DNA from: a virus
Taxonomy: Duplodnaviria > Heunggongvirae > Uroviricota > Caudoviricetes
Virus record (IMG/VR): IMGVR_UViG_2667527965_000001
Length of the DNA: 10,116 bases
Reading direction: 5' to 3' (one strand)
The position numbers and the translations under genes are program-made. Shown here piece after piece: positions 1 to 10,116 of this stretch. The notes below the pieces were generated by a model. It saw only the letters and a list, made by a program, of their open reading frames with translations. It was not told where the DNA came from and searched no databases. How positions within the stretch are numbered: the first letter of the stretch is position 1; the number at the start of each line of letters is the position of its first letter.

Positions 1-77
1 AGCTGATAGAAACAGAAGCCACTGGAGCACCTCAAAAACACCATCATACACTAAATCAGTAAGTTGGCAGCATCACC
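1..77 (-). mobile_element. IS1 terminal fragment: left inverted repeat plus the first 77 bp, reverse orientation; the element continues leftward outside the window
   Basis: Positions 1-77 are the exact reverse complement of 10040-10116. The sequence read from 10040 (GGTGATGCTGCCAACTTACTGATTTAGTGTATGATGGTGTTTTTGAGGTGCTCCAGTGGCTTCTGTTTCTATCAGCT) matches the IS1 left end and the start of insA (GTG GCT TCT GTT TCT ATC AGC = MASVSIS) as I recall it. Confidence 0.85.
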
Positions 78-179
78 CAAAACATCAACTTTTTCCATAT
101 ACCTTGCTGTGAAGATGATGGGCATAGATGATGCGAACAACCAGAACGCAACAAACAAAAACTGCAATGCGTTTTTCAT
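51..179 (-). pseudogene. Small ORF truncated by IS1: 34 native codons (MKNALQFLFVAFWLFASSMPIIFTARYMEKVDVL, hydrophobic signal-peptide or TM-like N-terminus) fused to 8 IS1-derived codons (GDAANLLI, stop)
   Basis: ATG at 177-179 (minus strand) is preceded by GGAGG at 184-188. The reading frame crosses the IS1 boundary at 77/78 and stops inside IS1. It is absent from the ORF track because it is under the length cut-off. Confidence 0.3.
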
Positions 180-433
180 TATTCCTCCTACAATCAATGT
201 GCAATTACATTTAAACACACCTCAATTTGGCCGGACATATAAATATCTAAACCAGAAAAAATCACTTACATAGCGTTACAAACTCTTTAGTCTAAAGGTT
301 CATCGTAAAACATTCCCCATACTTATCAGTCCGTTCCGCGCCAGGTAGCTCATTGCCTTATCTGGCAACCTGTAATCAGGTTTCCGCTTTTTCAGTTGGC
401 TGGTCGTTTAACCGACATAGTTAATCCATTAAT

Positions 434-721
434 CTAGTTGCCGGATGTTGGTGGATTTTCGCGTTTTAGTTGTTCATAAAAGTGCACAGCTTTAACCAGT
501 TCTTCTGATGTAACTGGGACTGGTGAGGCAGTGAATAAGGCCTGAATTTGATAGTTCGGCCTGTCGTTACAATCCTCTTTTTTCGGTACATATTTCCAGT
601 CACCAGACCACTACTTCCCCTGAAAGTCCGTAACGCCTTTTTTCACGTAGCGATATCGCCATGCCACTGGTTTTGCTTGCCCCGCCGTTTCATGCCCTTC
701 CTGATAATTAATCTCGCTCAT
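434..721 (-). pseudogene. Candidate decayed gene: a 36-codon ORF (MSEINYQEGHETAGQAKPVAWRYRYVKKGVTDFQGK) followed in frame, after a single TAG at 611-613, by 58 more sense codons (WSGDWKYVPKKEDCNDRPNYQIQALFTASPVPVTSEELVKAVHFYEQLKRENPPTSGN)
   Basis: Hand translation of the minus strand. One in-frame amber codon separates two protein-like segments. No homolog recognised. Confidence 0.2.
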
Positions 722-958
722 TCATCGCCCCACTCATCACAATATGCTTCGACCGGAGTTTTTCCCGCTTCATAGTCATCACGCTAGGATTCGACATCAG
801 CAGCACTTCCACCGCGTAACTCACCATAGTCCATTAATAGTTCATCCCGCTCTTCAAAACTGATGTTATATTTAGCTGAACAAAAATCAGCCACTTTGTT
901 CTTCCTCATCGTCTTTTATTTCGTGGTATGAGTAATTGCAGTAGTTAAAGAAAATTTC

Positions 959-1069
959 TTATGCTCCGTCATGAATTTCCTCAGGTGTTGCGTCATCGTC
1001 CACTTCGAATACATCCTCAAAATCTCCACCAGCTATTCCCGTTTCAATAATAATTTTGAACTTTCGCAT
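959..1069 (-). CDS. Small acidic hypothetical protein, 36 aa (MRKFKIIIETGIAGGDFEDVFEVDDDATPEEIHDGA)
   Basis: ATG at 1067-1069 (minus strand), stop at 959-961. Upstream AGGAGG (1093-1098) is separated from the ATG by a GC hairpin (1077-1092) plus 7 nt, so the effective spacing is good only if the hairpin forms. Confidence 0.3.
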   Translation of the reverse strand: MRKFKIIIETGIAGGDFEDVFEVDDDATPEEIHDGA

Positions 1070-1076
1070 TTCACTA

Positions 1077-1092
1077 CCGCCCTTTCGGGCGG
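1077..1092. other. Perfect GC hairpin: CCGCCC, loop TTTC, GGGCGG (GNRA-type GAAA loop on the minus strand)
   Basis: Direct reading. There is no U-tract on either side, so it is not a canonical intrinsic terminator. It sits between a strong SD and the start codon of the 959-1069 ORF. Confidence 0.5.
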
Positions 1093-1331
1093 CCTCCTGA
1101 TGTTCTGAGGGTGCAGAAATCCATCCGGTTAAGGATTAAATTTTATTTACAGAACTGAATTTAATTATTCAGATATACGTATCTGTAGCCTTACGAATCT
1201 ACTCACTGGATGCCTCTTTCATAAAAATAATCCAGTGGGTTTTATCGTTTTTTCCCTGTTCGTTGACAGATAACAGGTTTTCTGTCTGTCAGTGCCAGAA
1301 TCTGGCTTACCGGTATTTGCGTTTCATTCCA

Positions 1332-1688
1332 TTAAAAAATCAGAACGCCGTGCGGCCTCAACACCCGAAAGGCTTCTTTAAATCTCTGTCGCGAATCATC
1401 ACGCCAGGCATCTTTATTCAGCCGTCCATATTTCTTTCCCATCCAGGCGTTATCACCAACACTCTCAAGATGCGGAGGGTCTAATACAACCATCGAAAAA
1501 GATGCGTCTGCAAATGATAATGCACGAAAATCTGCGATAATGTCAGGGCTGATAATCAAGCGTCTCCCATTGCGTAATGTGTATCCTTCTTTTCTGATAT
1601 CGCTGAATATCGCCCGTTCGTCAGACTTATCGAACCAGAACATGCGGCTGCCACAGCACATATCAAGAATGGTTGCCGGTGCACTCAC
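1332..1688 (-). CDS. DNA methyltransferase-like protein (SAM-dependent, probably N6-adenine type), short and possibly 3'-truncated
   Basis: The translation contains LDMCCGS (motif I-like) and VVLDPPH (DPPY/DPPH catalytic motif-like). The start ATG overlaps the stop of the upstream 140-aa ORF (ATGA). The TAA stop at 1332-1334 is followed by 29 more in-frame sense codons before the next stop at 1242-1244. Confidence 0.5.
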   Translation of the reverse strand: MSAPATILDMCCGSRMFWFDKSDERAIFSDIRKEGYTLRNGRRLIISPDIIADFRALSFADASFSMVVLDPPHLESVGDNAWMGKKYGRLNKDAWRDDSRQRFKEAFRVLRPHGVLIF

Positions 1689-2107
1689 TGCGCCACGTCC
1701 TGAAAATTACCCTGATAGAAAGCCAGTATGCGCTGCATAACTTCGCTCTTCCGGCACTCGCGACAGATTATGTTTAGGCGACTGTCGTAGCGACGTATTT
1801 CTCCGTCAGGTGATGACCAGATAAGGTCCGGATCAACCACAGCAGGTTTCTTCACCTTTGCCCTCGAGAGTTTTTTGCGGGCGTTTTGCCAGTCCTTACG
1901 CGCCTGTTCAGAGGGGAATAACCCGTAGCCGGAGTTGTATACATCGCCACTGGCTACCAGCTCTCTGGCAAGAACGCTCATCAGATATCTAGTCGCACCT
2001 GTTTTAGCTTCCAGTTGCCGTAACGTCTCACGGCCGCTCTGGCGCACGAGTTCCACCACCTGCCATTTAATTTTTTCCCGCTCTTCTTGTGTAAAAACTT
2101 TTGCCAC
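1685..2107 (-). CDS. Hypothetical phage protein, 140 aa, possibly with a winged-helix-like N-terminus
   Basis: GTG start at 2105-2107 is preceded by a GGGGG SD about 5 nt upstream. It lies downstream of the O-like gene and is translationally coupled to the methyltransferase-like ORF. No family recognised. Confidence 0.55.
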   Translation of the reverse strand: MAKVFTQEEREKIKWQVVELVRQSGRETLRQLEAKTGATRYLMSVLARELVASGDVYNSGYGLFPSEQARKDWQNARKKLSRAKVKKPAVVDPDLIWSSPDGEIRRYDSRLNIICRECRKSEVMQRILAFYQGNFQDVAQ

Positions 2108-2147
2108 AAGTCCCCCTTAAAATTACCTCATGACCTGAAATCAACAC

Positions 2148-3113
2148 TTATCCTCTGAAACCAGGCGGAATTTCTGTATCCGGTTCAGAAATATGATTAA
2201 CACAACGCTGTACAGGTGAACGTCCCAGGCGGATGACCAGTTCGTCCCATTTTTCGCGGAGCTTTGACGGGCTCATGATGTTTTTTACCCAGAATGGATC
2301 TCGCTGAACCCGACCAAACATTTCGCAAATTTGTCTGTGGCTTCTGCCATCCAGCATCCGCATTGTGCGCACGTCATTGGCCCAGGCAGTCCAGTTAGGC
2401 TCTTTTGGTCGCATGATCTCGCCATCATCACTGGCTGCCTGTTCGTAGAGACCCACGATCCGCCCCCAGATCCACTGCGCACACGCCAAATCCTCCCTGC
2501 TACCCCACTGGCGTTTTTTCGCACTAAACACAACCGCGTCGGAGTTCCGGGTTAAAAAATCCTGTTCAGTCGTCTGCGGGTCCGGTTGCGAAGCTTCCGG
2601 ACGAAAAGTGTTTTTATTCTCTGTAGTAATCTCTGTTGTATTCTCTGTAAGATCATCAGGCCATTTTGACCCGATGACATTGGGTCGTTTTGAACCAATG
2701 GAGCGTTTCATTTTGACCTCTTCCATCGTGTCATTTTGACCTGATGGAGCGGCGCATTTTGAACCGATGGATTCGCTCAATTTGCCACCATCTAAAAGCT
2801 CGCTCCCATAGTTGATCGTGTAGAAATTGGTCATATCGCGCTTTGATTTATTGAGCTTTTCACAACGCAAAAGCCCCAGCGTTTTCAGACTTGCAAACGC
2901 GCGCTTTAACGTTGACTCTGACCAGAATGGGAACTGTTCCAGCCATTGTTCCGTTGTGTTATAAATCCAGCGAACACCATCACATTCCATGCCGGAGTTG
3001 GTATCTCTCAACCAGTAGTGCAGTTGTTGCAAAACAATGGCTTCGTTTAAGCCAATTTTCATTGCCAGCTGCGTGTTTATAACCAGTGGGCGTTCAGCAA
3101 AAAGAAGGCTCAT
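2148..3113 (-). CDS. Replication initiator, lambda O-like (iteron-binding)
   Basis: It sits in the O position of the rightward-operon equivalent. Iterons are embedded in the coding sequence, which translates to a repeated IGSKRPNVIGSKWPD-like motif. The ORF track starts at TTG 3167; ATG at 3111-3113 (MSLLFAERP...) is the more plausible start and overlaps the upstream stop by about 20 nt. Confidence 0.65.
   Translation of the reverse strand: MSLLFAERPLVINTQLAMKIGLNEAIVLQQLHYWLRDTNSGMECDGVRWIYNTTEQWLEQFPFWSESTLKRAFASLKTLGLLRCEKLNKSKRDMTNFYTINYGSELLDGGKLSESIGSKCAAPSGQNDTMEEVKMKRSIGSKRPNVIGSKWPDDLTENTTEITTENKNTFRPEASQPDPQTTEQDFLTRNSDAVVFSAKKRQWGSREDLACAQWIWGRIVGLYEQAASDDGEIMRPKEPNWTAWANDVRTMRMLDGRSHRQICEMFGRVQRDPFWVKNIMSPSKLREKWDELVIRLGRSPVQRCVNHISEPDTEIPPGFRG
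2661..2790. repeat. Iteron array: about 6 direct repeats of CATTTTGA(C/A)C-N-GATGG with a 22-24 bp period; putative ori-lambda-like origin inside the O-like gene
   Basis: Repeat units start near 2662, 2686, 2708, 2732, 2755 and 2778. The flanking 2595-2660 is AT-rich with a repeated TCTCTGT motif. Confidence 0.7.
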
Positions 3114-3615
3114 AATTCCATCCAGCTTTTTGTTGGTATTGCTGTCGATACGCAAGTTTGAAAGCAATTGCTTTTTCTATAAGTTCGTCAGTTTCACGAT
3201 CCACTACGGCAGGATCAGCAAAAAGCAGTCCGGACTCCACCACATCGCCATATTCTTTGTTTAACCCGGCGATCATGCACGTGATGCTTTTTCCGTCAGT
3301 AATTTCACGATACAACCTGAAATCATTAATCCGGATAGCCTCCATAATTGCAGGCACTAGCGCCGTGAACTTTTCACGCTTATCCCTGGTGTCGATAGCC
3401 TTCCAGCGTTCAAATATCTTCACTCGATTAACGCCAAGCGCTCGCTGATCAATCGCGCCACCTTCATATGTGACACGCTGAACATCGATGTTCGGGCGCT
3501 CTTTCAAAGCCCAGAATGCTTCAGTGATTAATATCGTCGCCTGCTCCTGTGTCATTCCTGGGCGACATATCCAGGCATCCAGAGCCTCACGAGCCTGTTC
3601 AGGAGTGATTTTCAT
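3094..3615 (-). CDS. YdaT-like protein (cII-position protein of Rac/Qin-type prophages)
   Basis: 173-aa ORF immediately downstream of the Cro-like gene. The segment IFERWKAIDTRDKREKFTALVPAIMEAI resembles Rac YdaT as I recall it. Family assignment is from memory. Confidence 0.5.
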   Translation of the reverse strand: MKITPEQAREALDAWICRPGMTQEQATILITEAFWALKERPNIDVQRVTYEGGAIDQRALGVNRVKIFERWKAIDTRDKREKFTALVPAIMEAIRINDFRLYREITDGKSITCMIAGLNKEYGDVVESGLLFADPAVVDRETDELIEKAIAFKLAYRQQYQQKAGWNYEPSFC

Positions 3616-3826
3616 TGTTCAACCGCCCCGCCCGCTTCGTCTTACGATATTCATCATAAACTTTGGGATCATACTGAAGCTCCCCGCCAGATGCCTCCTG
3701 TAGACGCATCGCGCGACCTTCAGGAACCAGTATCCCCCAAGCAGCAACACTTGCCAGTCTCACCCCTGCGGCATTGGCAAGCTTTGTTTTGCTGCCAAAA
3801 AAAGTAATTGCGTCAACTTTAAGCAT
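3599..3826 (-). CDS. dicC: Cro-like HTH regulator DicC, 75 aa from the ATG at 3824-3826
   Basis: It is divergent from the DicA-like repressor, and is preceded by a GAGGGGG SD 5 nt upstream. Its size and position match dicC of Qin. The ORF track adds one TTG codon upstream. Confidence 0.65.
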   Translation of the reverse strand: MLKVDAITFFGSKTKLANAAGVRLASVAAWGILVPEGRAMRLQEASGGELQYDPKVYDEYRKTKRAGRLNNENHS

Positions 3827-3840
3827 CAAAGCCCCCTCTT

Positions 3841-3856
3841 GTTAGACTTTTCTAAC
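3841..3856. promoter_or_regulatory. Perfect palindromic operator GTTAGA-N4-TCTAAC in the dicC-dicA intergenic region
   Basis: Direct reading. An identical half-site palindrome recurs at 4352-4367, and a degenerate copy (ATTAGA-ATTA-CCTAAC) at 3890-3905 abuts the dicA start. Confidence 0.5.
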
Positions 3857-3884
3857 ATTATTGTGCGCGGGATACCTAAGTCAA
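3857..3884 (-). promoter_or_regulatory. Putative sigma70 promoter for dicC (leftward)
   Basis: On the minus strand: -35 TTGACT (plus 3879-3884), 16-bp spacer, -10 AATAAT (plus 3857-3862). The operator at 3841-3856 lies just downstream of the -10. Confidence 0.35.
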
Positions 3885-3906
3885 GAAAAATTAGAATTAC
3901 CTAACT

Positions 3907-4314
3907 ATGGATACAAGAACCCTAGGCCAGCGAGTTCTGGCGCGACGAAAAGAATTACGCTTAACACAACGAGAAGCTGCGCGCCTCGCTGGAGTTGCTC
4001 ACGTCACAATTTCACAATGGGAAAGAGACGAAACCCAGCCAGTCGGAAAACGATTGTTTGCTTTAGCGGATGCTCTGAAGTGCTCACCTACATGGCTAAT
4101 GTTTGGTGACGAAGACAAGGCACCAGTGCCTGCACAAGAACTTCATGTGGAAACAGAGCTAACTCCCAACCACAAAGAATTGATCGAATTATTCGATGCT
4201 CTTCCATCTTCCGAGCAGGAAGCCTTGCTGTCTGAAATGCGCGCAAGAGTAGAAAACTTCAACAAACTCTTCGAAGAAATGCTTAAAGCGCGTAAAAATA
4301 AATCAATAAAATAA
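3907..4314 (+). CDS. dicA: DicA-type HTH repressor (cI-like immunity repressor)
   Basis: 135-aa translation with HTH LTQREAARLAGVAHVTISQWERDETQP and C-terminal EMRARVENFNKLFEEMLKARK. It closely resembles E. coli Qin DicA as recalled, and is followed by ydfA, ydfB, ydfC, DicF and dicB in the known order. Confidence 0.85.
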   Translation: MDTRTLGQRVLARRKELRLTQREAARLAGVAHVTISQWERDETQPVGKRLFALADALKCSPTWLMFGDEDKAPVPAQELHVETELTPNHKELIELFDALPSSEQEALLSEMRARVENFNKLFEEMLKARKNKSIK

Positions 4315-4351
4315 CATTCTTTTCAAGTGATTAGTTGCGCCCACTCTTTTC

Positions 4352-4367
4352 GTTAGACCAATCTAAC
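4352..4367. promoter_or_regulatory. Second perfect GTTAGA-N4-TCTAAC operator, upstream of ydfA (dicB operon control region)
   Basis: Direct reading. A degenerate copy GTTAGG-TTAT-TCTAAA at 4388-4403 overlaps the candidate promoter. Confidence 0.5.
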
Positions 4368-4376
4368 AAAAAACAC

Positions 4377-4405
4377 TTGCCTATCATGTTAGGTTATTCT
4401 AAATT
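4377..4405 (+). promoter_or_regulatory. Putative dicB-operon promoter
   Basis: -35 TTGCCT (4377-4382), 17-bp spacer, -10 TAAATT (4400-4405). The match to consensus is weak; the call rests on its position between the operators and ydfA. Confidence 0.3.
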
Positions 4406-4482
4406 ACTTTCCATCAAGACACCGCACGGTGTTCTCAGCAAACAGTTCCGCTACCCCGGCGTTAAGGGGAAATGAGGTAAGC

Positions 4483-4638
4483 ATGGATACTATCGATCTT
4501 GGCAACAACGAATCTCTGGTGTACGGCGTGTTTCCAAACCAGGACGGCACGTTCACCGCAATGACGTATACCAAAAGCAAAACGTTTAAAACCGAAAATG
4601 GTGCCCGTCGCTGGCTGGAAAGAAACTCAGGTGAGTGA
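4483..4638 (+). CDS. ydfA: YdfA-like small protein, 51 aa (MDTIDLGNNESLVYGVFPNQDGTFTAMTYTKSKTFKTENGARRWLERNSGE)
   Basis: GAGGT SD 4-5 nt upstream of the ATG at 4483. Length and sequence match Qin YdfA as recalled. The ORF track begins 18 codons upstream at a non-ATG start. Confidence 0.8.
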   Translation: MDTIDLGNNESLVYGVFPNQDGTFTAMTYTKSKTFKTENGARRWLERNSGE

Positions 4639-4639
4639 T

Positions 4640-4768
4640 ATGGATTTCGACACAATCATGGAAAAGGCTTACGAAGAATACTTCGAAGGCCTTGCCGAAG
4701 GCGAAGAAGCTCTCAGCTTCAGTGAGTTTAAACACGCGCTTTCCAGTTCGGCAAAATCTAACGGCTGA
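4640..4768 (+). CDS. ydfB: YdfB-like small acidic protein, 42 aa (MDFDTIMEKAYEEYFEGLAEGEEALSFSEFKHALSSSAKSNG)
   Basis: ATG at 4640 lies 1 nt after the ydfA stop, with AGGTGAG upstream. It is not in the ORF track (under the length cut-off; the track shows an overlapping frame 4635-4844 instead). Matches Qin YdfB as recalled. Confidence 0.8.
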   Translation: MDFDTIMEKAYEEYFEGLAEGEEALSFSEFKHALSSSAKSNG

Positions 4769-4797
4769 TAAGCGAAACAGCACCGCGAGGAATCAGT

Positions 4798-5016
4798 ATG
4801 CAGAAACGAGAACCCGTCATCATCGCGCCAGACTATACCGATGATGAACTTTATGAGTGGATGCGCCAGAAAATTAATGCAGCGCAGGATCTGAAATGGG
4901 CTAATGAAGCCAGGGCTAAGCAGGCTGAAAATCTGTCCGCTCTGGAGCAGGATATCACCAATCTGGAAAAAGCAGCGGCATTAAGCATTGCCAGAATGAT
5001 TACATACCCGCGTTAG
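4798..5016 (+). CDS. ydfC: YdfC-like protein, 72 aa
   Basis: GAGGA SD 6 nt upstream. Its position after ydfB and its size match Qin YdfC. Confidence 0.8.
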   Translation: MQKREPVIIAPDYTDDELYEWMRQKINAAQDLKWANEARAKQAENLSALEQDITNLEKAAALSIARMITYPR

Positions 5017-5356
5017 TAGCTAATCAACAAAGCTAAGGTTAGTAATTAAGGAGTTCTCCACGGGTGAGGTGGAGTGCGTGCGCCGGACACGGGTGCGCAT
5101 CCGGAACTGACAGTTTACTGAAAGGATATTTCCCTGAAAAGTCAGACCATAACGCGAAAGCGCACGGCGAGGTAGCTGGTTCATAGATAGCCTGTCGTTA
5201 AATTTTCGTCGACCGTGCGCTTCCGGTTGTGGCAACCCGCGAAATGGCGCGGCGGTAAGTATGGCGGGGTTATTCCTTCCCCGTTGAGGACACCGGGTTG
5301 TCAGGTTGACCATACGCTTAAGTGACAACCCCGCTGCAACGCCCTCTGTTATCAAT

Positions 5357-5414
5357 TTTCTGGTGACGTTTGGCGGTATCAGTTTTACTCCGTGACTGCT
5401 CTGCCGCCCTTTTT
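5357..5414 (+). ncRNA. dicF: DicF small RNA (antisense inhibitor of ftsZ translation)
   Basis: TTTCTGGTGACGTTTGGCGGTATCAGTTTTACTCCGTGACTGCTCTGCCGCCCTTTTT matches the DicF sequence as recalled, including the GGCGG/CCGCC terminator stem and U-tract. It sits between ydfC and dicB as in the dicB operon. Confidence 0.8.
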
Positions 5415-5507
5415 AAAGTGAATTTTGTGATGTGGTGAATGCGGCTGAGCGCACGCGGAACAGTTAAAACCAAAAACAGTGTTATGGGTGGATTCTCTGT
5501 ATCCGGC

Positions 5508-5528
5508 GTTAATTGTTAACTGGTTAAC
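5508..5528. promoter_or_regulatory. Three direct GTTAA(T/C) repeats at 7-8 bp spacing, followed by a CCTGG-N5-CCAGG inverted repeat (5533-5547), just upstream of the dicB RBS
   Basis: Direct reading. The half-site resembles the GTTAGA operator half-site. No function is known to me. Confidence 0.25.
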
Positions 5529-5583
5529 GTCACCTGGAGGCACCAGGCACTGCATCACAAAATTCATTGTTGAGGACGCGATA

Positions 5584-5772
5584 ATGAAAACGTTATTACC
5601 AAACGTTAATACGTCTGAAGGTTGTTTTGAAATTGGTGTCACTATCAGTAACCCAGTATTTACTGAAGATGCCATTAACAAGAGAAAACAAGAACGGGAG
5701 CTATTAAATAAAATATGCATTGTTTCAATGCTGGCTCGTTTACGTCTGATGCCAAAAGGATGTGCACAATGA
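5584..5772 (+). CDS. dicB: DicB cell-division inhibitor, 62 aa
   Basis: MKTLLPNVNTSEGCFEIGVTISNPVFTEDAINKRKQERELLNKICIVSMLARLRLMPKGCAQ matches DicB as recalled. GAGGA SD 7 nt upstream. The ORF track begins at an upstream non-ATG codon. Confidence 0.85.
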   Translation: MKTLLPNVNTSEGCFEIGVTISNPVFTEDAINKRKQERELLNKICIVSMLARLRLMPKGCAQ

Positions 5773-5960
5773 ATTCAGCATTTGTGCTTGTTCTGACAGT
5801 TTTTCTTGTTTCCGGAGAGCCAGTTGATATTGCAGTCAGTGTTCACAGGACAATGCAGGAGTGTATGACTGCAGCAACCGAACAGAAAATTCCCGGTAAC
5901 TGTTACCCGGTCGATAAAGTTATTCACCAGGATAATATCGAAATCCCGGCAGGTCTTTAA
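5769..5960 (+). CDS. ydfD: YdfD-like small membrane/lysis protein, 63 aa
   Basis: ATG overlaps the dicB stop (ATGA). Hydrophobic N-terminus MNSAFVLVLTVFLVSGEPV. Position and size match Qin YdfD. Confidence 0.8.
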   Translation: MNSAFVLVLTVFLVSGEPVDIAVSVHRTMQECMTAATEQKIPGNCYPVDKVIHQDNIEIPAGL

Positions 5961-6052
5961 AACAGTTCCGTAATAAATATCCGGTTTCATTCTTATATGC
6001 CAGCAATGGCAGGGATTTGTTCATCCTTAAATCTGTCATGAGGTTAAAACAA

Positions 6053-8524
6053 ATGAGTAAAGTCTTTATTTGCGCCGCTATTCCTGACGAACTGGCAACA
6101 AGGGAAGAAGGCGCTGTGGCTGTAGCCACAGCCATTGAAGCTGGCGACGAACGCCGTGCTCGAGCAAAATTTCACTGGCAATTCCTGGAACATTATCCGG
6201 CTGCTCAGGACTGCGCTTATAAATTTATTGTCTGCGAGGATAAACCTGGCATACCCCGCCCTGCCCTCGATTCATGGGATGCTGAATATATGCAGGAAAA
6301 CCGCTGGGATGAGGAGTCTGCTTCTTTTGTCCCGGTTGAGACTGAATCCGATCCGATGAACGTCACTTTTGACAAGCTGGCCCCTGAAGTACAGAACGCT
6401 GTCATGGTTAAGTTCGACACATGTGAAAACATCACCGTTGATATGGTTATTAGCGCACAGGAATTGTTGCAGGAAGACATGGCAACATTCGACGGACATA
6501 TCGTTGAAGCGTTGATGAAAATGCCAGAAGTTAACGCCATGTATCCGGAGCTTAAGTTGCACGCCATTGGGTGGGTTAAGCATAAATGTATTCCTGGTGC
6601 TAAATGGCCCGAAATTCAGGCAGAGATGCGCATCTGGAAAAAACGTCGCGAAGGTGAACGCAAGGAAACCGGAAAATACACGTCTGTTGTTGATCTCGCC
6701 CGCGCCAGAGCCAATCAACAGTACACTGAAAATTCAACAGGAAAAATCAGCCCGGTCATTGCTGCCATTCATCGCGAATACAAGCAGACATGGAAAACAC
6801 TGGATGACGAACTGGCCTACGCTCTCTGGCCTAGTGATGTGGATGCCGGAAACATTGACGGCAGCATCCATCGCTGGGCAAAAAAAGAAGTTATCGACAA
6901 CGACCGCGAAGACTGGAAGCGTATCTCGGCATCAATGCGCAAACAGCCTGATGCCCTTCGCTACGACCGCCAAACTATTTTTGGCCTTGTCCGTGAGCGT
7001 CCGATCGACATTCACAAAGATCCCGTAGCACTGAACAAATATATCTGCGAATACCTGACGACAAAGGGCGTGTTTGAGAATGAAGAAACAGACCTGGGCA
7101 CTGTTGATGTTCTCCAGTCATCAGAAACACAAACTGATGCAGTGGAAACTGAGGTATCTGATATCCCAAAAAATGAAACCGCGCCGGAAGCTGAACCATC
7201 TGTAGAGCGTGAGGGGCCGTTCTATTTCCTCTTCGCAGATAAGGACGGAGAAAAATACGGTCGCGCAAACAAACTCTCTGGTCTGGATAAGGCACTGGCT
7301 GCTGGCGCCACTGAAATCACAAAAGAAGAATATTTTGCCCGAAAAAATGGCACATACACGGGCTTACCGCAAAATGTAGATACCGCTGAAGATTCAGAAC
7401 AACCAGAGCCGATAAAAGTTACCGCTGACGAAGTAAACAAAATTATGCAGGCAGCCAATATCAGCCAGCCTGACGCCGATAAGTTGCTTGCTGCATCACG
7501 TGGTGAATTTGTTGAAGGGATTAGTGACCCGAATGATCCGAAATGGGTTAAGGGGCTCCAGACCCGCGATTCTGTGAACCAGAACCAGCATGAATCGGAA
7601 CGGAACTACCAAAAAGCGGAACAAAACAGTCCAAATGCGTTACAAAACGAGCCAGAAACGAAACAGCCTGAACCAGTAGCGCAACAGGAAGTGGAAAAAG
7701 TCTGCACCGCCTGCGGTCAGACCGGCGGCGGCAACTGCCCTGATTGTGGCGCGGTGATGGGCGACGCAACATACCAAGAAACATTCGATGAAGAGTATCA
7801 GGTTGAAGTTCAGGAAGATGATCCGGAGGAAATGGAAGGCGCTGAACATCCACACAAGGAGAACACTGGCGGCAATCAGCATCACAATAGCGATAATGAA
7901 ACTGGCGAGACGGCAGATCACCCAATTAAGGTGAACGGTCATCACGAAATCACATCCACCAGCAGGACGTGTGACCATCTAATGATCGACCTTGAAACCA
8001 TGGGAAAAAATCCTGATGCCCCGATCATCTCAATAGGTGCAATATTTTTCGATCCGCAAACCGGAGATATGGGACCGGAATTTAGTAAGACTATCGATCT
8101 GGAAACTGCTGGCGGAGTCATTGATCGGGACACCATTAAATGGTGGCTTAAGCAATCACGCGAAGCGCAATCTGCCATTATGACCGATGAAATCCCGTTA
8201 GATGATGCACTGTTACAATTGCGAGAATTTATCGACGAAAACTCCGGTGAATTTTTTGTTCAGGTTTGGGGAAATGGAGCCAACTTCGACAACACGATTT
8301 TGCGCCGTTCATACGAACGGCAGGGGATCCCCTGCCCGTGGCGTTACTACAACGATCGCGATGTACGCACAATCGTTGAGCTGGGGAAAGCCATAGACTT
8401 CGATGCCAGAACGGCTATTCCATTCGAAGGTGAGCGCCATAATGCACTTGATGACGCCCGTTACCAGGCAAAATACGTTTCAGTTATCTGGCAAAAACTG
8501 ATCCCGAGTCAGGCTGATTCTTAA
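6053..8524 (+). CDS. RecE-family (exodeoxyribonuclease VIII-annotated type) multidomain protein: RecE-like central region, acidic linker, CxxC-N8-CxxC zinc ribbon, His-rich segment, C-terminal DEDDh 3'-5' exonuclease domain
   Basis: The central segment DADKLLAASRGEFVEGISDPNDPKWVKGLQTRD matches a segment of Rac RecE as I recall it. The C-terminus carries DnaQ-like motifs MIDLETMG (Exo I), WGNGANFDNTIL (Exo II) and HNALDDARYQA (Exo III). GAGGT SD 8 nt upstream of the ATG at 6053; the ORF track starts at TTG 6017. Confidence 0.8.
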   Translation: MSKVFICAAIPDELATREEGAVAVATAIEAGDERRARAKFHWQFLEHYPAAQDCAYKFIVCEDKPGIPRPALDSWDAEYMQENRWDEESASFVPVETESDPMNVTFDKLAPEVQNAVMVKFDTCENITVDMVISAQELLQEDMATFDGHIVEALMKMPEVNAMYPELKLHAIGWVKHKCIPGAKWPEIQAEMRIWKKRREGERKETGKYTSVVDLARARANQQYTENSTGKISPVIAAIHREYKQTWKTLDDELAYALWPSDVDAGNIDGSIHRWAKKEVIDNDREDWKRISASMRKQPDALRYDRQTIFGLVRERPIDIHKDPVALNKYICEYLTTKGVFENEETDLGTVDVLQSSETQTDAVETEVSDIPKNETAPEAEPSVEREGPFYFLFADKDGEKYGRANKLSGLDKALAAGATEITKEEYFARKNGTYTGLPQNVDTAEDSEQPEPIKVTADEVNKIMQAANISQPDADKLLAASRGEFVEGISDPNDPKWVKGLQTRDSVNQNQHESERNYQKAEQNSPNALQNEPETKQPEPVAQQEVEKVCTACGQTGGGNCPDCGAVMGDATYQETFDEEYQVEVQEDDPEEMEGAEHPHKENTGGNQHHNSDNETGETADHPIKVNGHHEITSTSRTCDHLMIDLETMGKNPDAPIISIGAIFFDPQTGDMGPEFSKTIDLETAGGVIDRDTIKWWLKQSREAQSAIMTDEIPLDDALLQLREFIDENSGEFFVQVWGNGANFDNTILRRSYERQGIPCPWRYYNDRDVRTIVELGKAIDFDARTAIPFEGERHNALDDARYQAKYVSVIWQKLIPSQADS

Positions 8525-8535
8525 TGTTCAACTGT

Positions 8536-8567
8536 CGCCGGTTGTGACTGGTATTCTGCAACCGGCG
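8536..8567 (+). other. 9-bp GC-rich hairpin (CGCCGGTTG, 14-nt loop, CAACCGGCG) between the exonuclease gene and xis
   Basis: Direct reading. No U-tract follows, so it is not a canonical intrinsic terminator; it may be an attenuator or processing site. Confidence 0.3.
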
Positions 8568-8596
8568 CTCGTCTGATGTAAGAGATAAAGAAATCG

Positions 8597-8848
8597 ATGA
8601 GCGAAGTAATCATGATTGTCTCTCCCGGCAAATGGGTATCCGAAGAGCAGTTAATTGCGCTGAAAGGAATAAAAAAAGGTACGTTAAAAAAGGCCCGGGA
8701 AAAATCGTTTATGGAAGGAAGGGAATATAAGCATGTCGCTCATGACGGTATGCCATGGGATAACAGTCCATGCTTTTACAACCTGGAAGAAATTGATCGC
8801 TGGATTGAGCGCCAGGCATCAGCGAGACCAAGACGTCATCTTACTTGA
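8597..8848 (+). CDS. Excisionase (Xis-like)
   Basis: 83-aa ORF immediately upstream of the integrase. It contains a GREY motif reminiscent of lambda Xis (DGREYLF). Confidence 0.6.
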   Translation: MSEVIMIVSPGKWVSEEQLIALKGIKKGTLKKAREKSFMEGREYKHVAHDGMPWDNSPCFYNLEEIDRWIERQASARPRRHLT

Positions 8849-8882
8849 CTAAAAGCCACACTAACTAATGAGAGAAGTTGAA

Positions 8883-10061
8883 ATGAAATATCCGACAGGC
8901 GTGGAAAACCATGGAGGGAAATTACGTATCTGGTTTGTTTATAAAGACGTAAGAGTCAGGGAAAATCTGGGGGTTCCTGACACAGCAAAAAACAGGCGCG
9001 TTGCAGGTGAACTACGCTCCTCTGTTTGTTACGCAATAAAAACTGGTGTTTTCGACTATGCAAAACAGTTTCCCTCCTCACGCAATCTGGAAAAATTTGG
9101 TGAGGCCCGACAAGATTTAACCATAAAAGAACTGGCTGAAAAATTTCTGGCACTGAAAGAAACTGAAGTCGCCAAAACATCACTCAACACATACCGTGCC
9201 GTCATCAAAAATATCCTGAGCATAATCGGTGAAAAAAATCTTGCCTCATCGATTAATAAAGAAAAATTACTGGAGGTTCGTAAAGAGTTACTGACTGGAT
9301 ACCAGATCCCCAAAAGTAACTATATTGTTACACAACCAGGGAGATCGGCTGTAACTGTAAATAATTACATGACAAATCTTAACGCCGTGTTCCAGTTTGG
9401 TGTTGATAACGGTTACCTGGCAGATAATCCGTTTAAGGGGATCTCGCCATTAAAGGAATCAAGAACCATTCCGGATCCTCTTTCGCGGGAAGAATTTATC
9501 CGTCTTATCGATGCGTGCAGAAATCAGCAAGCAAAAAATTTATGGTGTGTTTCTGTTTATACTGGAGTTCGCCCTGGTGAGCTGTGTGCACTTGGATGGG
9601 AGGACATAGATCTGAAAAATGGAACAATGATGATCAGGAGAAATTTAGCAAAAGACCGTTTCACGGTACCAAAAACACAGGCGGGAACCAATCGGGTCAT
9701 TCATCTTATTAAGCCAGCAATCGACGCTCTCCGGAGTCAGATGACATTAACGAGACTGAGCAAAGAGCATATCATTGATGTTCACCTCAGAGAGTATGGC
9801 AGAACAGAAAAACAAAAATGCACCTTTGTTTTTCAACCTGAAGTGTCAGCGAGAGTAAAAAATTATGGTGACCATTTTACCGTTGACTCAATAAGGCAGA
9901 TGTGGGACGCAGCGATAAAACGTGCCGGACTCCGCCATCGAAAATCATATCAGTCGAGACATACTTATGCCTGCTGGTCGCTGACAGCTGGTGCTAACCC
10001 GGCATTTATAGCAAACCAGATGGGCCATGCAGATGCGCAGGTGATGCTGCCAACTTACTGA
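8883..10061 (+). CDS. Lambda-family tyrosine integrase, C-terminally disrupted by IS1 (the last 7 codons and the stop are IS1-derived); probably inactive
   Basis: Arm-binding-type N-terminus (KYPTGVENHGGKLRIWFVYKDVRV), then catalytic-core boxes (RPGELCALGWEDIDL ... RHTYACWSLTAGANPAFIANQMGHADAQ). The frame enters the IS1 inverted repeat at 10040 and ends VMLPTY-stop. ATG 8883 has the better SD; the ORF track starts at 8868. Confidence 0.8.
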   Translation: MKYPTGVENHGGKLRIWFVYKDVRVRENLGVPDTAKNRRVAGELRSSVCYAIKTGVFDYAKQFPSSRNLEKFGEARQDLTIKELAEKFLALKETEVAKTSLNTYRAVIKNILSIIGEKNLASSINKEKLLEVRKELLTGYQIPKSNYIVTQPGRSAVTVNNYMTNLNAVFQFGVDNGYLADNPFKGISPLKESRTIPDPLSREEFIRLIDACRNQQAKNLWCVSVYTGVRPGELCALGWEDIDLKNGTMMIRRNLAKDRFTVPKTQAGTNRVIHLIKPAIDALRSQMTLTRLSKEHIIDVHLREYGRTEKQKCTFVFQPEVSARVKNYGDHFTVDSIRQMWDAAIKRAGLRHRKSYQSRHTYACWSLTAGANPAFIANQMGHADAQVMLPTY

Positions 10062-10116
10062 TTTAGTGTATGATGGTGTTTTTGAGGTGCTCCAGTGGCT
10101 TCTGTTTCTATCAGCT

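Follow-up and report, generated by a model that had tools for sequence, protein, structure and literature searches.

The systems closest to the locus described here are IS1 composite transposons, the Qin prophage of Escherichia coli K-12 and the contig breaks that IS elements cause in short-read assemblies. Composite transposons of the Tn9/Tn1681 type carry their cargo between two copies of one IS, which in Tn1681 is IS1, and are recognised by occurring as a unit at more than one genomic location or by a single target-site duplication at the outer ends. A complete IS1 has about 768 bp with insA, insB' and a programmed frameshift, and direct target-site duplications of 8–9 bp flank each copy. 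Tn9 is the classical IS1 composite, and inverted IS1 pairs around segments of 7.5 kb and 41 kb transposed as composites in laboratory evolution work that used an engineered high-activity IS1 (PMC12065110). When IS copies stand in inverted orientation, homologous recombination between them flips the intervening segment and does not delete it (PMC5009759). IS insertions are also recognised as breaking contigs and fragmenting assemblies (PMC12828178).

The window, by which we mean the whole stretch of DNA analysed (10,116 nt), begins and ends with IS1 sequence. Our best explanation, which we consider probable, is that it is a whole draft contig broken at IS1, and that the cryptic lambdoid prophage whose int-proximal 10 kb it contains, of the Qin type, received simple IS1 insertions in situ.

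IS1 ends and the limits of the contig

The arms at 1–77 and 10040–10116 are each 77 nt long and 100% complementary, with the pairing ending at base 78 (C versus T); the chance expectation for such a pair of arms in 10 kb is about 2e-39. The 77-mer is identical at 77/77 positions to nt 1–77 of an annotated full-length 768-bp IS1A from E. coli VG12A2 (L004 2625–3392), in which the InsA/InsAB' CDS begins at IS1 nt 56 (L004 2680), and agrees with the IRR end of IS1 at just 36 of 77 positions. Because of this identity and the poor IRR match, both ends of the window can be assigned to the IRL of IS1 facing inward, each showing the terminal inverted repeat next to the start of insA, as the first-pass annotation had proposed. 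Two other sources of the repeat were rejected: a single IS1 or an excised circle would put an IRL at one end and an IRR at the other, in place of the two IRLs seen, and a chance or hairpin artefact is ruled out by an independent assembly (Logan) that shows both junctions too.

The window is identical in sequence to the full contig LIVC01000090.1 (10116 nt, range 1–10116) of the draft genome GCA_001419925.1. This record is from E. coli; the dense IS1 load had earlier brought to mind Shigella or IS-rich E. coli, of which Shigella does not hold as the source, and one contig is no measure of the IS1 load of its genome. The integrase on the contig is recorded as 'integrase [Escherichia coli]' (KQJ02501.1). 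Logan contigs from ERR12409523 match window positions 52–10067 with 0 mismatches and include both junctions, although with identity over 10 kb they possibly come from the same strain and so represent an independent assembly, not necessarily an independent lineage. Both Logan junction contigs terminate within IS1 and not within prophage sequence, and they hold no more than 28 and 26 nt of IS1. How much of IS1 can be seen is therefore set by the assembler (77 nt in GCA_001419925.1 versus 28/26 nt in Logan), and since the window spans a draft contig from end to end, a length of 77 bp is uninformative on the true extent of IS1. The arm length is a contig-end effect, the repeat having been cut by the assembler.

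As IS1 is a repeat, the assembler would have been unable to pass it and would have halted after one k-mer, which would leave exactly 77 nt at each end as perfect reverse complements. We infer k = 77 for the GCA_001419925.1 assembly; a literature search found no paper citing this accession, and for this reason both the assembler and k are inferred values. The Logan contigs stop at 26 and 28 nt into IS1 and not at about 30 nt. A perfect terminal inverted repeat of k-mer-like length on a complete draft contig should be taken with caution, as the mark of a collapsed repeat and not as a measurement of the element itself.

The Qin-type interior and the genes cut at its ends

The interior (78–10039) is colinear, at 99–100% identity, with the int-proximal arm of a Qin-type prophage in 297 complete E. 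coli genomes, where the arm occupies its usual place adjoining rspB. In UC4224, where it differs by 6 mismatches, it is bordered by ydfW/flxA and by rspB. The order dicC-dicA-ydfABC-dicF-dicB-ydfD-ydfE-int beside rspB identifies the prophage as Qin-type, the rspB adjacency being seen in the relatives only. The cargo had been read earlier as a Qin-type immunity and dicBF region, and dicB, DicF and a DicA-like repressor are indeed present (Table 1). Together with DicC, the exonuclease and the excisionase, these three remain intact despite IS1. A 23-bp repeat array (repeat families D1 and D2) at about 2654–2784, inside the O-like gene, probably represents origin iterons.

Table 1. Features of the window, with strand and the basis of each assignment.
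Feature	Position	Strand	Basis
IS1 nt 1–77 (IRL and first 22 nt of insA)	1..77	−	Reverse complement of 10040–10116; identical to L004 IS1A; IS1 runs on leftward past the contig end
Truncated small ORF	51..179	−	Codons 1–34 (179 down to 78), then 8 IS1-encoded codons (GDAANLLI) and stop
Frameshifted hypothetical gene, decayed	300–721	−	RefSeq pseudogene; colinear L001 6223–6644 (offset 5923)
DUF7167 gene with internal stop, decayed	887–1069	−	RefSeq pseudogene; colinear L001 6810–6992 (offset 5923)
Short SAM-dependent DNA methyltransferase, 118 aa	1332..1688	−	phrog_954, E=6.7e-58; RefSeq
DUF977 protein	1685..2107	−	PF06163; RefSeq
Replication initiator O-like protein	2148..3113	−	phrog_391, E=1.1e-91; RefSeq 'phage replication protein O'
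YdaT-family protein	3094..3615	−	PF06254
DicC, Cro-like regulator	3599..3826	−	PF14549 P22_Cro; RefSeq 'DicC'; 65 residues identical to K-12 DicC
DicA-like HTH immunity repressor, divergent allele	3907..4314	+	PF01381; repressor PHROGs; 75/135 identical to K-12 DicA
ydfA, ydfB, ydfC	4483..5016	+	RefSeq of colinear locus; YdfA 51/51 as in K-12
DicF small RNA	5358..5409	+	Rfam RF00039, 76.7 bits versus gathering score 48, E=5.7e-16; identical to K-12 dicF
dicB	5584–5772	+	PF05358; 62/62 as in K-12
ydfD	5769–5960	+	PF07358; 63/63 as in K-12
Intact YdfE-type 3'-5' exonuclease, 823 aa	6053..8524	+	phrog_2082 full length; PF27430, PF27432, PF16473
Excisionase	8597..8848	+	PF06806; RefSeq 'excisionase family protein'
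IS1-truncated integrase	8883..10061	+	Codons 1–386 (to 10039), then 6 IS1-encoded codons (VMLPTY) and stop
IS1 nt 1–77 (IRL and insA start GTG at IS1 nt 56)	10040..10116	+	Identical to L004 2625–2701; IS1 runs on rightward past the contig end

Both junctions cut through genes, a small hydrophobic ORF on the left and the integrase on the right, as had been described from the window itself. The left junction (77/78) cuts a hydrophobic 59-codon ORF after codon 34. The intact 59-aa version is found at L001 5923–6102(−) with an AGGAGG upstream; the ORF has no annotation in RefSeq CP104472 and no match in Pfam or PHROG.

The right junction (10039/10040) severs the integrase after codon 386 of 426, by comparison with the intact 426-aa integrase of L001. 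The intact protein reads GHADAQ/MVFQVYGKW, with the last tyrosine at position 392, versus GHADAQ/VMLPTY and stop in the window. In all, the C-terminal 40 aa are lost, including Tyr392 and 34 further residues, and the Pfam PF00589 match ends at profile position 160, not 165. Tyr392 is placed as the catalytic residue by alignment to the catalytic region of Tn1549 Int. An active tyrosine recombinase carries this tyrosine after the conserved histidine (GH...Y392), and the window sequence is severed after Q386. Without Tyr392 and the C-terminal 40 residues, the prophage could not be excised by its own recombinase. By chance, a tyrosine encoded by IS1 falls at position 392 of the chimeric integrase, in an unrelated context (LPTY and stop).

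Junction searches and the origin of the two insertions

Searched against 5,426 complete E. coli genomes, the left junction nowhere aligned over 80% or more of the query, and the exact site of the right junction is absent from the same set; 13 apparent right-junction matches were rejected as two-piece matches with IS1 copies at other sites, at distances of 31 to about 490 bp. In none of 72,556 plasmids is 80% or more of the interior covered, and none carries an IS1-bounded copy, the best matches being mislabelled chromosomes or related prophages. Exact-pattern scans of IMG/VR, GTDB representative genomes and JGI metagenomes for both junctions gave 0 matches. Exact-protein look-ups of the junction chimeras led back to the source contig and the Logan contigs of ERR12409523 and to nothing else: in an index of 153 billion genes the chimeric integrase occurs on just two contigs, identical in sequence, and longer alternative-start variants of the chimeras are not on record. 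The arrangement of IS1, Qin arm and IS1 is thus private to one clone, and with the junctions absent from all of these genome, plasmid and metagenome sets there is no sign of the unit having moved.

Complete genomes do contain simple full-length IS1A insertions at three other sites of the int/rspB boundary, none of them at the window site 10039/10040. VG12A2 has a simple insertion, flanked by an 8-bp duplication, at a point 31 bp deeper in int, in H1827/12 and others IS1A lies in the int-rspB spacer, and in Z226-5 it lies inside rspB; all have IRL towards int, a common orientation that is imposed by the search, which joined pieces on one strand.

Under the favoured reading, two IS1 copies, each presumably a complete 768-bp element acquired by simple insertion in situ, would border the segment, their IRL (insA) ends pointing inward, one in the 59-codon ORF at 77/78 and the other in int at 10039/10040. 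The remaining prophage and rspB would continue beyond them. Such insertions would join the IRR end of one IS1 (GGTAATGACTCCAACTTATTGATAG…) to GATGTTTTGATATTAATATTTGGATATATAAATGCC, the rest of the small ORF, and another IS1 IRR end to AGATGCGCAAATGGTATTTCAGGTATACGG, the int C-terminus followed by rspB. Target-site duplications, if 9 bp in length, are expected as CAAAACATC on the left and AGATGCGCA on the right. Biologically, the likely effect is that the prophage decays further.

IS1 forms cointegrates, adjacent deletions and inversions, which counts in favour of a one-step origin. Here a resident IS1, for example in int, would have undergone intramolecular replicative transposition into the small ORF, leaving an inverted second copy and inverting the intervening 10 kb, so that the segment would be flipped relative to rspB now or would once have been. 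We regard this as a minor possibility. Such an event always yields two inverted copies with the same end type inward (here IRL), as observed, and by our reasoning two independent insertions would give the exact arrangement only one time in four; the sites are also just 10 kb apart, in keeping with short-range transposition and with the local hopping of IS elements analysed in PMC12065110. Stepwise insertion nevertheless predicts identical local junctions (our reasoning; see PMC5009759 for inversions generally), and because both origins predict the same junction sequences the window cannot separate them. Simple IS1 insertions are moreover common at the int/rspB boundary, and a null-model simulation placed 5.5% of simple IS insertions within 10 kb of another IS (PMC12065110).

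Much less probable again is an earlier move of the unit as an active composite transposon, with the contig being a copy away from the rspB locus. The geometry of the window is compatible with it, and the evolved 7.5-kb and 41-kb pairs and Tn9 provide a precedent (PMC12065110); the evolution experiment, however, relied on its engineered IS1, and the junction, plasmid and integrase searches above speak against a moved copy. Equally improbable is a reading of the terminal blocks as short remnants of IS1 (solo IRL fragments) or as a product of chimeric assembly, and not as the ends of complete elements. Just 77 nt are visible at each end, and partial IS elements are known in the Qin family, the K-12 Qin having an IS2E remnant of 706 bp that separates ydfE' from intQ'. 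Against a chimera, two independent assemblies reproduce both junctions exactly. Both assemblers also halted within the block, as expected for a multi-copy repeat that continues onward, and every boundary IS1 examined in complete genomes has the full 698-nt transposase CDS, the one measured being 768 bp; an artefact from a circle or a single IS1 would, as noted, not show two IRLs.

Simple insertion in situ remains our preferred reading. In structure the window resembles a composite transposon in that inverted IRL ends of IS1 bracket the cargo at both inner boundaries. For the proposed transposon behaviour we found no evidence, as neither junction and no IS1-bounded copy elsewhere turned up in the collections searched. 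Recombination between the IS1 copies had been proposed to invert or delete the segment; the inversion is retained and the deletion is not, because inverted copies invert and do not delete (PMC5009759). The 10 kb could thus be flipped by homologous recombination, as could any segment between inverted IS copies, and could in principle be mobilised as a composite transposon.

It seems highly doubtful that in the source lineage the IS1-bounded Qin arm constitutes a functional module, whether mobile or invertible. Such a module could take the form of a composite transposon carrying the DicA-like repressor, DicC, DicF/dicB, the exonuclease and xis, or of an IS1-flanked invertible segment whose orientation alters expression at its borders. 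In a more exotic variant the chimeric integrase could retain some DNA-cleavage activity, with the VMLPTY tyrosine at the exact native position 392. If the unit did move, genes for prophage immunity and cell-division inhibitors would here be mobilised naturally by an IS1 pair; the interest would be modest, since laboratory work has already shown the mechanism.

Comparison with known systems

The neighbourhood of the arm in the colinear complete genomes (flxA and ydfW on one side; int followed by rspB, rspA and ynfA on the other) is that of the K-12 Qin (b1545-b1579 region beside rspB). Both share the order dicC, dicA, ydfA, ydfB, ydfC, dicF, dicB, ydfD, ydfE, int, and DicB, YdfD, YdfA and DicF are identical in the two. 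The K-12 arm is IS-damaged too, by the IS2E remnant already mentioned, whereas the damage in the window is by IS1 in int and the small ORF. The window also differs in retaining the O-like gene, YdaT, DUF977 and the methyltransferase as well as the intact 823-aa exonuclease and the excisionase, all lost or truncated in K-12, and in its divergent repressor, which shares 75 of 135 residues with DicA.

Like Tn9, Tn1681 and the evolved pairs, the window has two IS1 copies bracketing a cargo. Inverted orientation is documented for such composites with cargo of 7.5–41 kb (PMC12065110). Unlike them, the window unit gives no evidence of transposition as a unit, having neither a second location in the collections searched nor selectable cargo, and is known from one clone only.

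The underlying biology is already known, and this is a case of routine genome decay in which IS1 disables the integrase of a cryptic prophage and leaves an IS-bounded segment that is potentially flippable or mobilisable. The overall situation is ordinary: a contig from a Qin-type prophage, broken at both ends by multi-copy IS1. With no difference found from the contig breaks that IS elements induce in short-read assemblies, the window presents their textbook pattern, each end reaching into a multi-copy IS by exactly one block of fixed length while a second assembler halts at another depth of the same repeat.

IS1 ends and the draft contig

The IS1-bounded structure is real but ordinary: a draft contig from a Qin-type prophage breaks off at both ends in IS1 junctions. 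The observation of the first-pass annotation is confirmed and its interpretation partly supported. Window positions 1–77 and 10040–10116 form a perfect inverted repeat, with complementarity over by the 78th base, and a chance origin is excluded because only about 2e-39 such 77-nt pairs are expected per 10 kb. The annotated 768-bp IS1A of E. coli VG12A2 (CP128592; L004 2625–3392), whose transposase CDS starts at 2680 (IS1 nt 56), served as the reference for block identity. Window 10040–10116 is identical to its nt 1–77 and matches its opposite (IRR) end at only 36/77 positions, which assigns both window ends to the left (IRL/insA) end of IS1, pointing inward, with the elements predicted to run outward in opposite directions. 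The terminal inverted repeat had been attributed to the IS1 left end with the insA start, and this attribution holds.

An exact-protein search with the truncated integrase identified NCBI contig LIVC01000090.1 (assembly GCA_001419925.1; length 10116, range 1–10116), whose sequence is identical to the window; the window is therefore an entire draft contig, no slice of a longer sequence, and it stops on both sides where the assembly broke. Draft assemblies are known to fragment at IS insertions (PMC12828178). Two Logan contigs of run ERR12409523 (7349 and 2690 bp) cover window 52–10067 with 0 mismatches, both junctions included, and both terminate within IS1 and not in prophage DNA, with 28 and 26 nt of the element (L003 7322–7349; L005 2665–2690) against 77 in the window. 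Since the IS1 visible in the same DNA varies with the assembler, the 77 nt are a property of the assembly; given the workings of such assemblers, they would most simply be a 77-mer overlap with the single node into which a de Bruijn graph collapses its IS1 copies. Both junctions are real because two independent assemblies give both. This agreement makes a chimera or solo fragments unlikely as the origin of the IS1 ends, as does the halting of both assemblers inside the repeat, and the two IRL ends of the window do not fit an excised circle or a lone IS1, either of which would show one IRL and one IRR. The Logan ends fall short of the roughly 30 nt of IS1 that k=31 should leave; possibly the last few flanking bases recur next to other IS1 copies of that genome, in which case the number of copies would be high.

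The interrupted genes

An interrupted integrase had been proposed for the right junction, and sequence comparison with the intact 426-aa protein (…NQMGHADAQ386/MVFQVY392GKWMSEN…), whose C-terminal region can be aligned to the catalytic end of Tn1549 Int, places the IS1 entry point after codon 386. In place of the nucleophile Tyr392 and the 34 C-terminal residues stands VMLPTY-stop, read from the IS1 end. The truncated protein, deposited under KQJ02501.1 as "integrase [Escherichia coli]", has a Pfam Phage_integrase match that ends at profile position 160 instead of 165. With Tyr392 and the residues beyond it exchanged, the chimeric integrase should be catalytically dead. The 392-aa chimera itself ends in a Tyr at the native Tyr392 position (window 10022–10061, …GHADAQMVFQVY…), almost certainly by coincidence, as the surrounding residues bear no relation to the native ones and include a proline.

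The small ORF with a hydrophobic N-terminus said to be cut at the left junction corresponds to a predicted 59-codon ORF with a good Shine-Dalgarno and two hydrophobic stretches (MKNALQ…CIEYWR in strain UC4224), interrupted after codon 34. The UC4224 RefSeq record does not annotate it, and it has no match in Pfam or PHROG. Within it, window position 127 is one of the six differences from UC4224 (Cys18 to Ser), and the Logan contig carries the window allele. The left target is 80% A+T and the right target 51%.

Distribution and origin of the IS1 pair

No uninterrupted match to either junction exists among 5,426 complete E. coli genomes, and scans for the exact patterns found neither in IMG/VR, GTDB representative genomes or JGI metagenomes; PLSDB holds no plasmid with ≥80% of the interior (window 78–10039), and the chimeric integrase is on record only in LIVC01000090.1 and an ERR12409523 Logan contig. 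As the junction, plasmid and protein searches gave no other copy, the structure is confined to one clone, with no hint that the unit ever moved by transposition. Thirteen apparent right-junction matches proved to be IS1A copies inserted elsewhere (deeper in int by 31 bp, in the int–rspB spacer, or inside rspB); the one inspected base by base is a simple insertion that carries an 8-bp duplication.

In complete E. coli genomes, IS1A occupies at least three other independent sites at the Qin int/rspB boundary (L004 2625–3392; L007 about 3396; L008 about 3581): in VG12A2 within int, 31 bp downstream from the site in the window (8-bp duplication AATGGATG); in the spacer in H1827/12, EC0026B and others; and inside rspB in Z226-5. 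Locally, this boundary may be a hot region for IS1; that these copies share one orientation follows from how the search works.

On the simplest reading, two IS1 copies inserted in situ into a cryptic prophage whose DNA is neutral and evidently prone to IS1 insertion; they would have locked the prophage in place. A single intramolecular replicative transposition (inversion-insertion) would also produce the inverted, IRL-inward geometry, but the local junction sequences are identical for both routes, so the window does not discriminate between them, and we consider this source of both copies improbable. Whichever way the pair arose, recombination between direct copies gives deletion and between inverted copies inversion (PMC5009759), and the earlier suggestion that the segment could be deleted by IS1–IS1 recombination is wrong for this geometry. 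Such an inversion, at a later stage, would flip the segment with no junction created or destroyed, so short reads are blind to it (PMC5009759). Composite transposition by inverted IS1 pairs with 7.5–41 kb of cargo has been directly observed with an engineered hyperactive IS1 (PMC12065110); the composite transposon proposed in the first pass stands as a real potential, generic and already known, with no sign in the searched collections that the unit has transposed.

The Qin-type interior

The interior aligns as a single block at 99–100% identity in 297 complete E. coli genomes, with 6 mismatches to UC4224. There the block is flanked by relBE, ydfV, flxA, ydfW and an ISNCY remnant on one side and by rspB-rspA-ynfA on the other, a position and gene order shared with the cryptic prophage Qin of K-12.

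Features of the Qin-type interior in window coordinates
Feature	Position	Strand	Evidence
Two decayed genes	300–1069		
Short DNA methyltransferase	1332–1688	−	RefSeq annotation, PHROG
DUF977 protein	1685–2107	−	
O-like replication initiator, 23-bp repeat array at about 2654–2784	2148–3113	−	
YdaT-family protein	3094–3615	−	
DicC	3599–3826	−	
DicA-like repressor	3907–4314	+	
ydfA, ydfB, ydfC	4483–5016	+	
DicF	5358–5409	+	Rfam, 76.7 bits
dicB	5584–5772	+	
ydfD	5769–5960	+	
YdfE-type exonuclease, intact, 823 aa	6053–8524	+	
Excisionase	8597–8848	+	
Integrase	from 8883	+	

The left part of the segment is degraded already in all close relatives; of the two decayed genes, one is hypothetical and frameshifted and the other, a DUF7167 gene, is interrupted by an internal stop, and the 118-aa methyltransferase spans only positions 52–165 of a 229-position PHROG profile. 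The array inside the O-like gene consists of 4–6 direct repeats of about 23 bp (consensus about CATYRGNYCRTTTTGAMCYRATG) and resembles the iterons of lambdoid origins. At k=31 the Logan assembly of this DNA breaks exactly there, L003 beginning at window 2719 and L005 finishing at 2741.

DicB, YdfD, YdfA and DicF are identical to their K-12 counterparts and DicC shares 65 identical residues with K-12 DicC, whereas the repressor at the DicA position is identical at only 75/135 residues, which suggests that the immunity allele has been swapped within an otherwise conserved Qin arm. The corresponding arm of K-12 Qin (L006 10079–12709; MG1655 1650078–1652708) is IS-damaged too, a 706-bp IS2E remnant linking a truncated ydfE' to intQ', and it is without the O-like, YdaT, DUF977, methyltransferase and xis genes that the window has.
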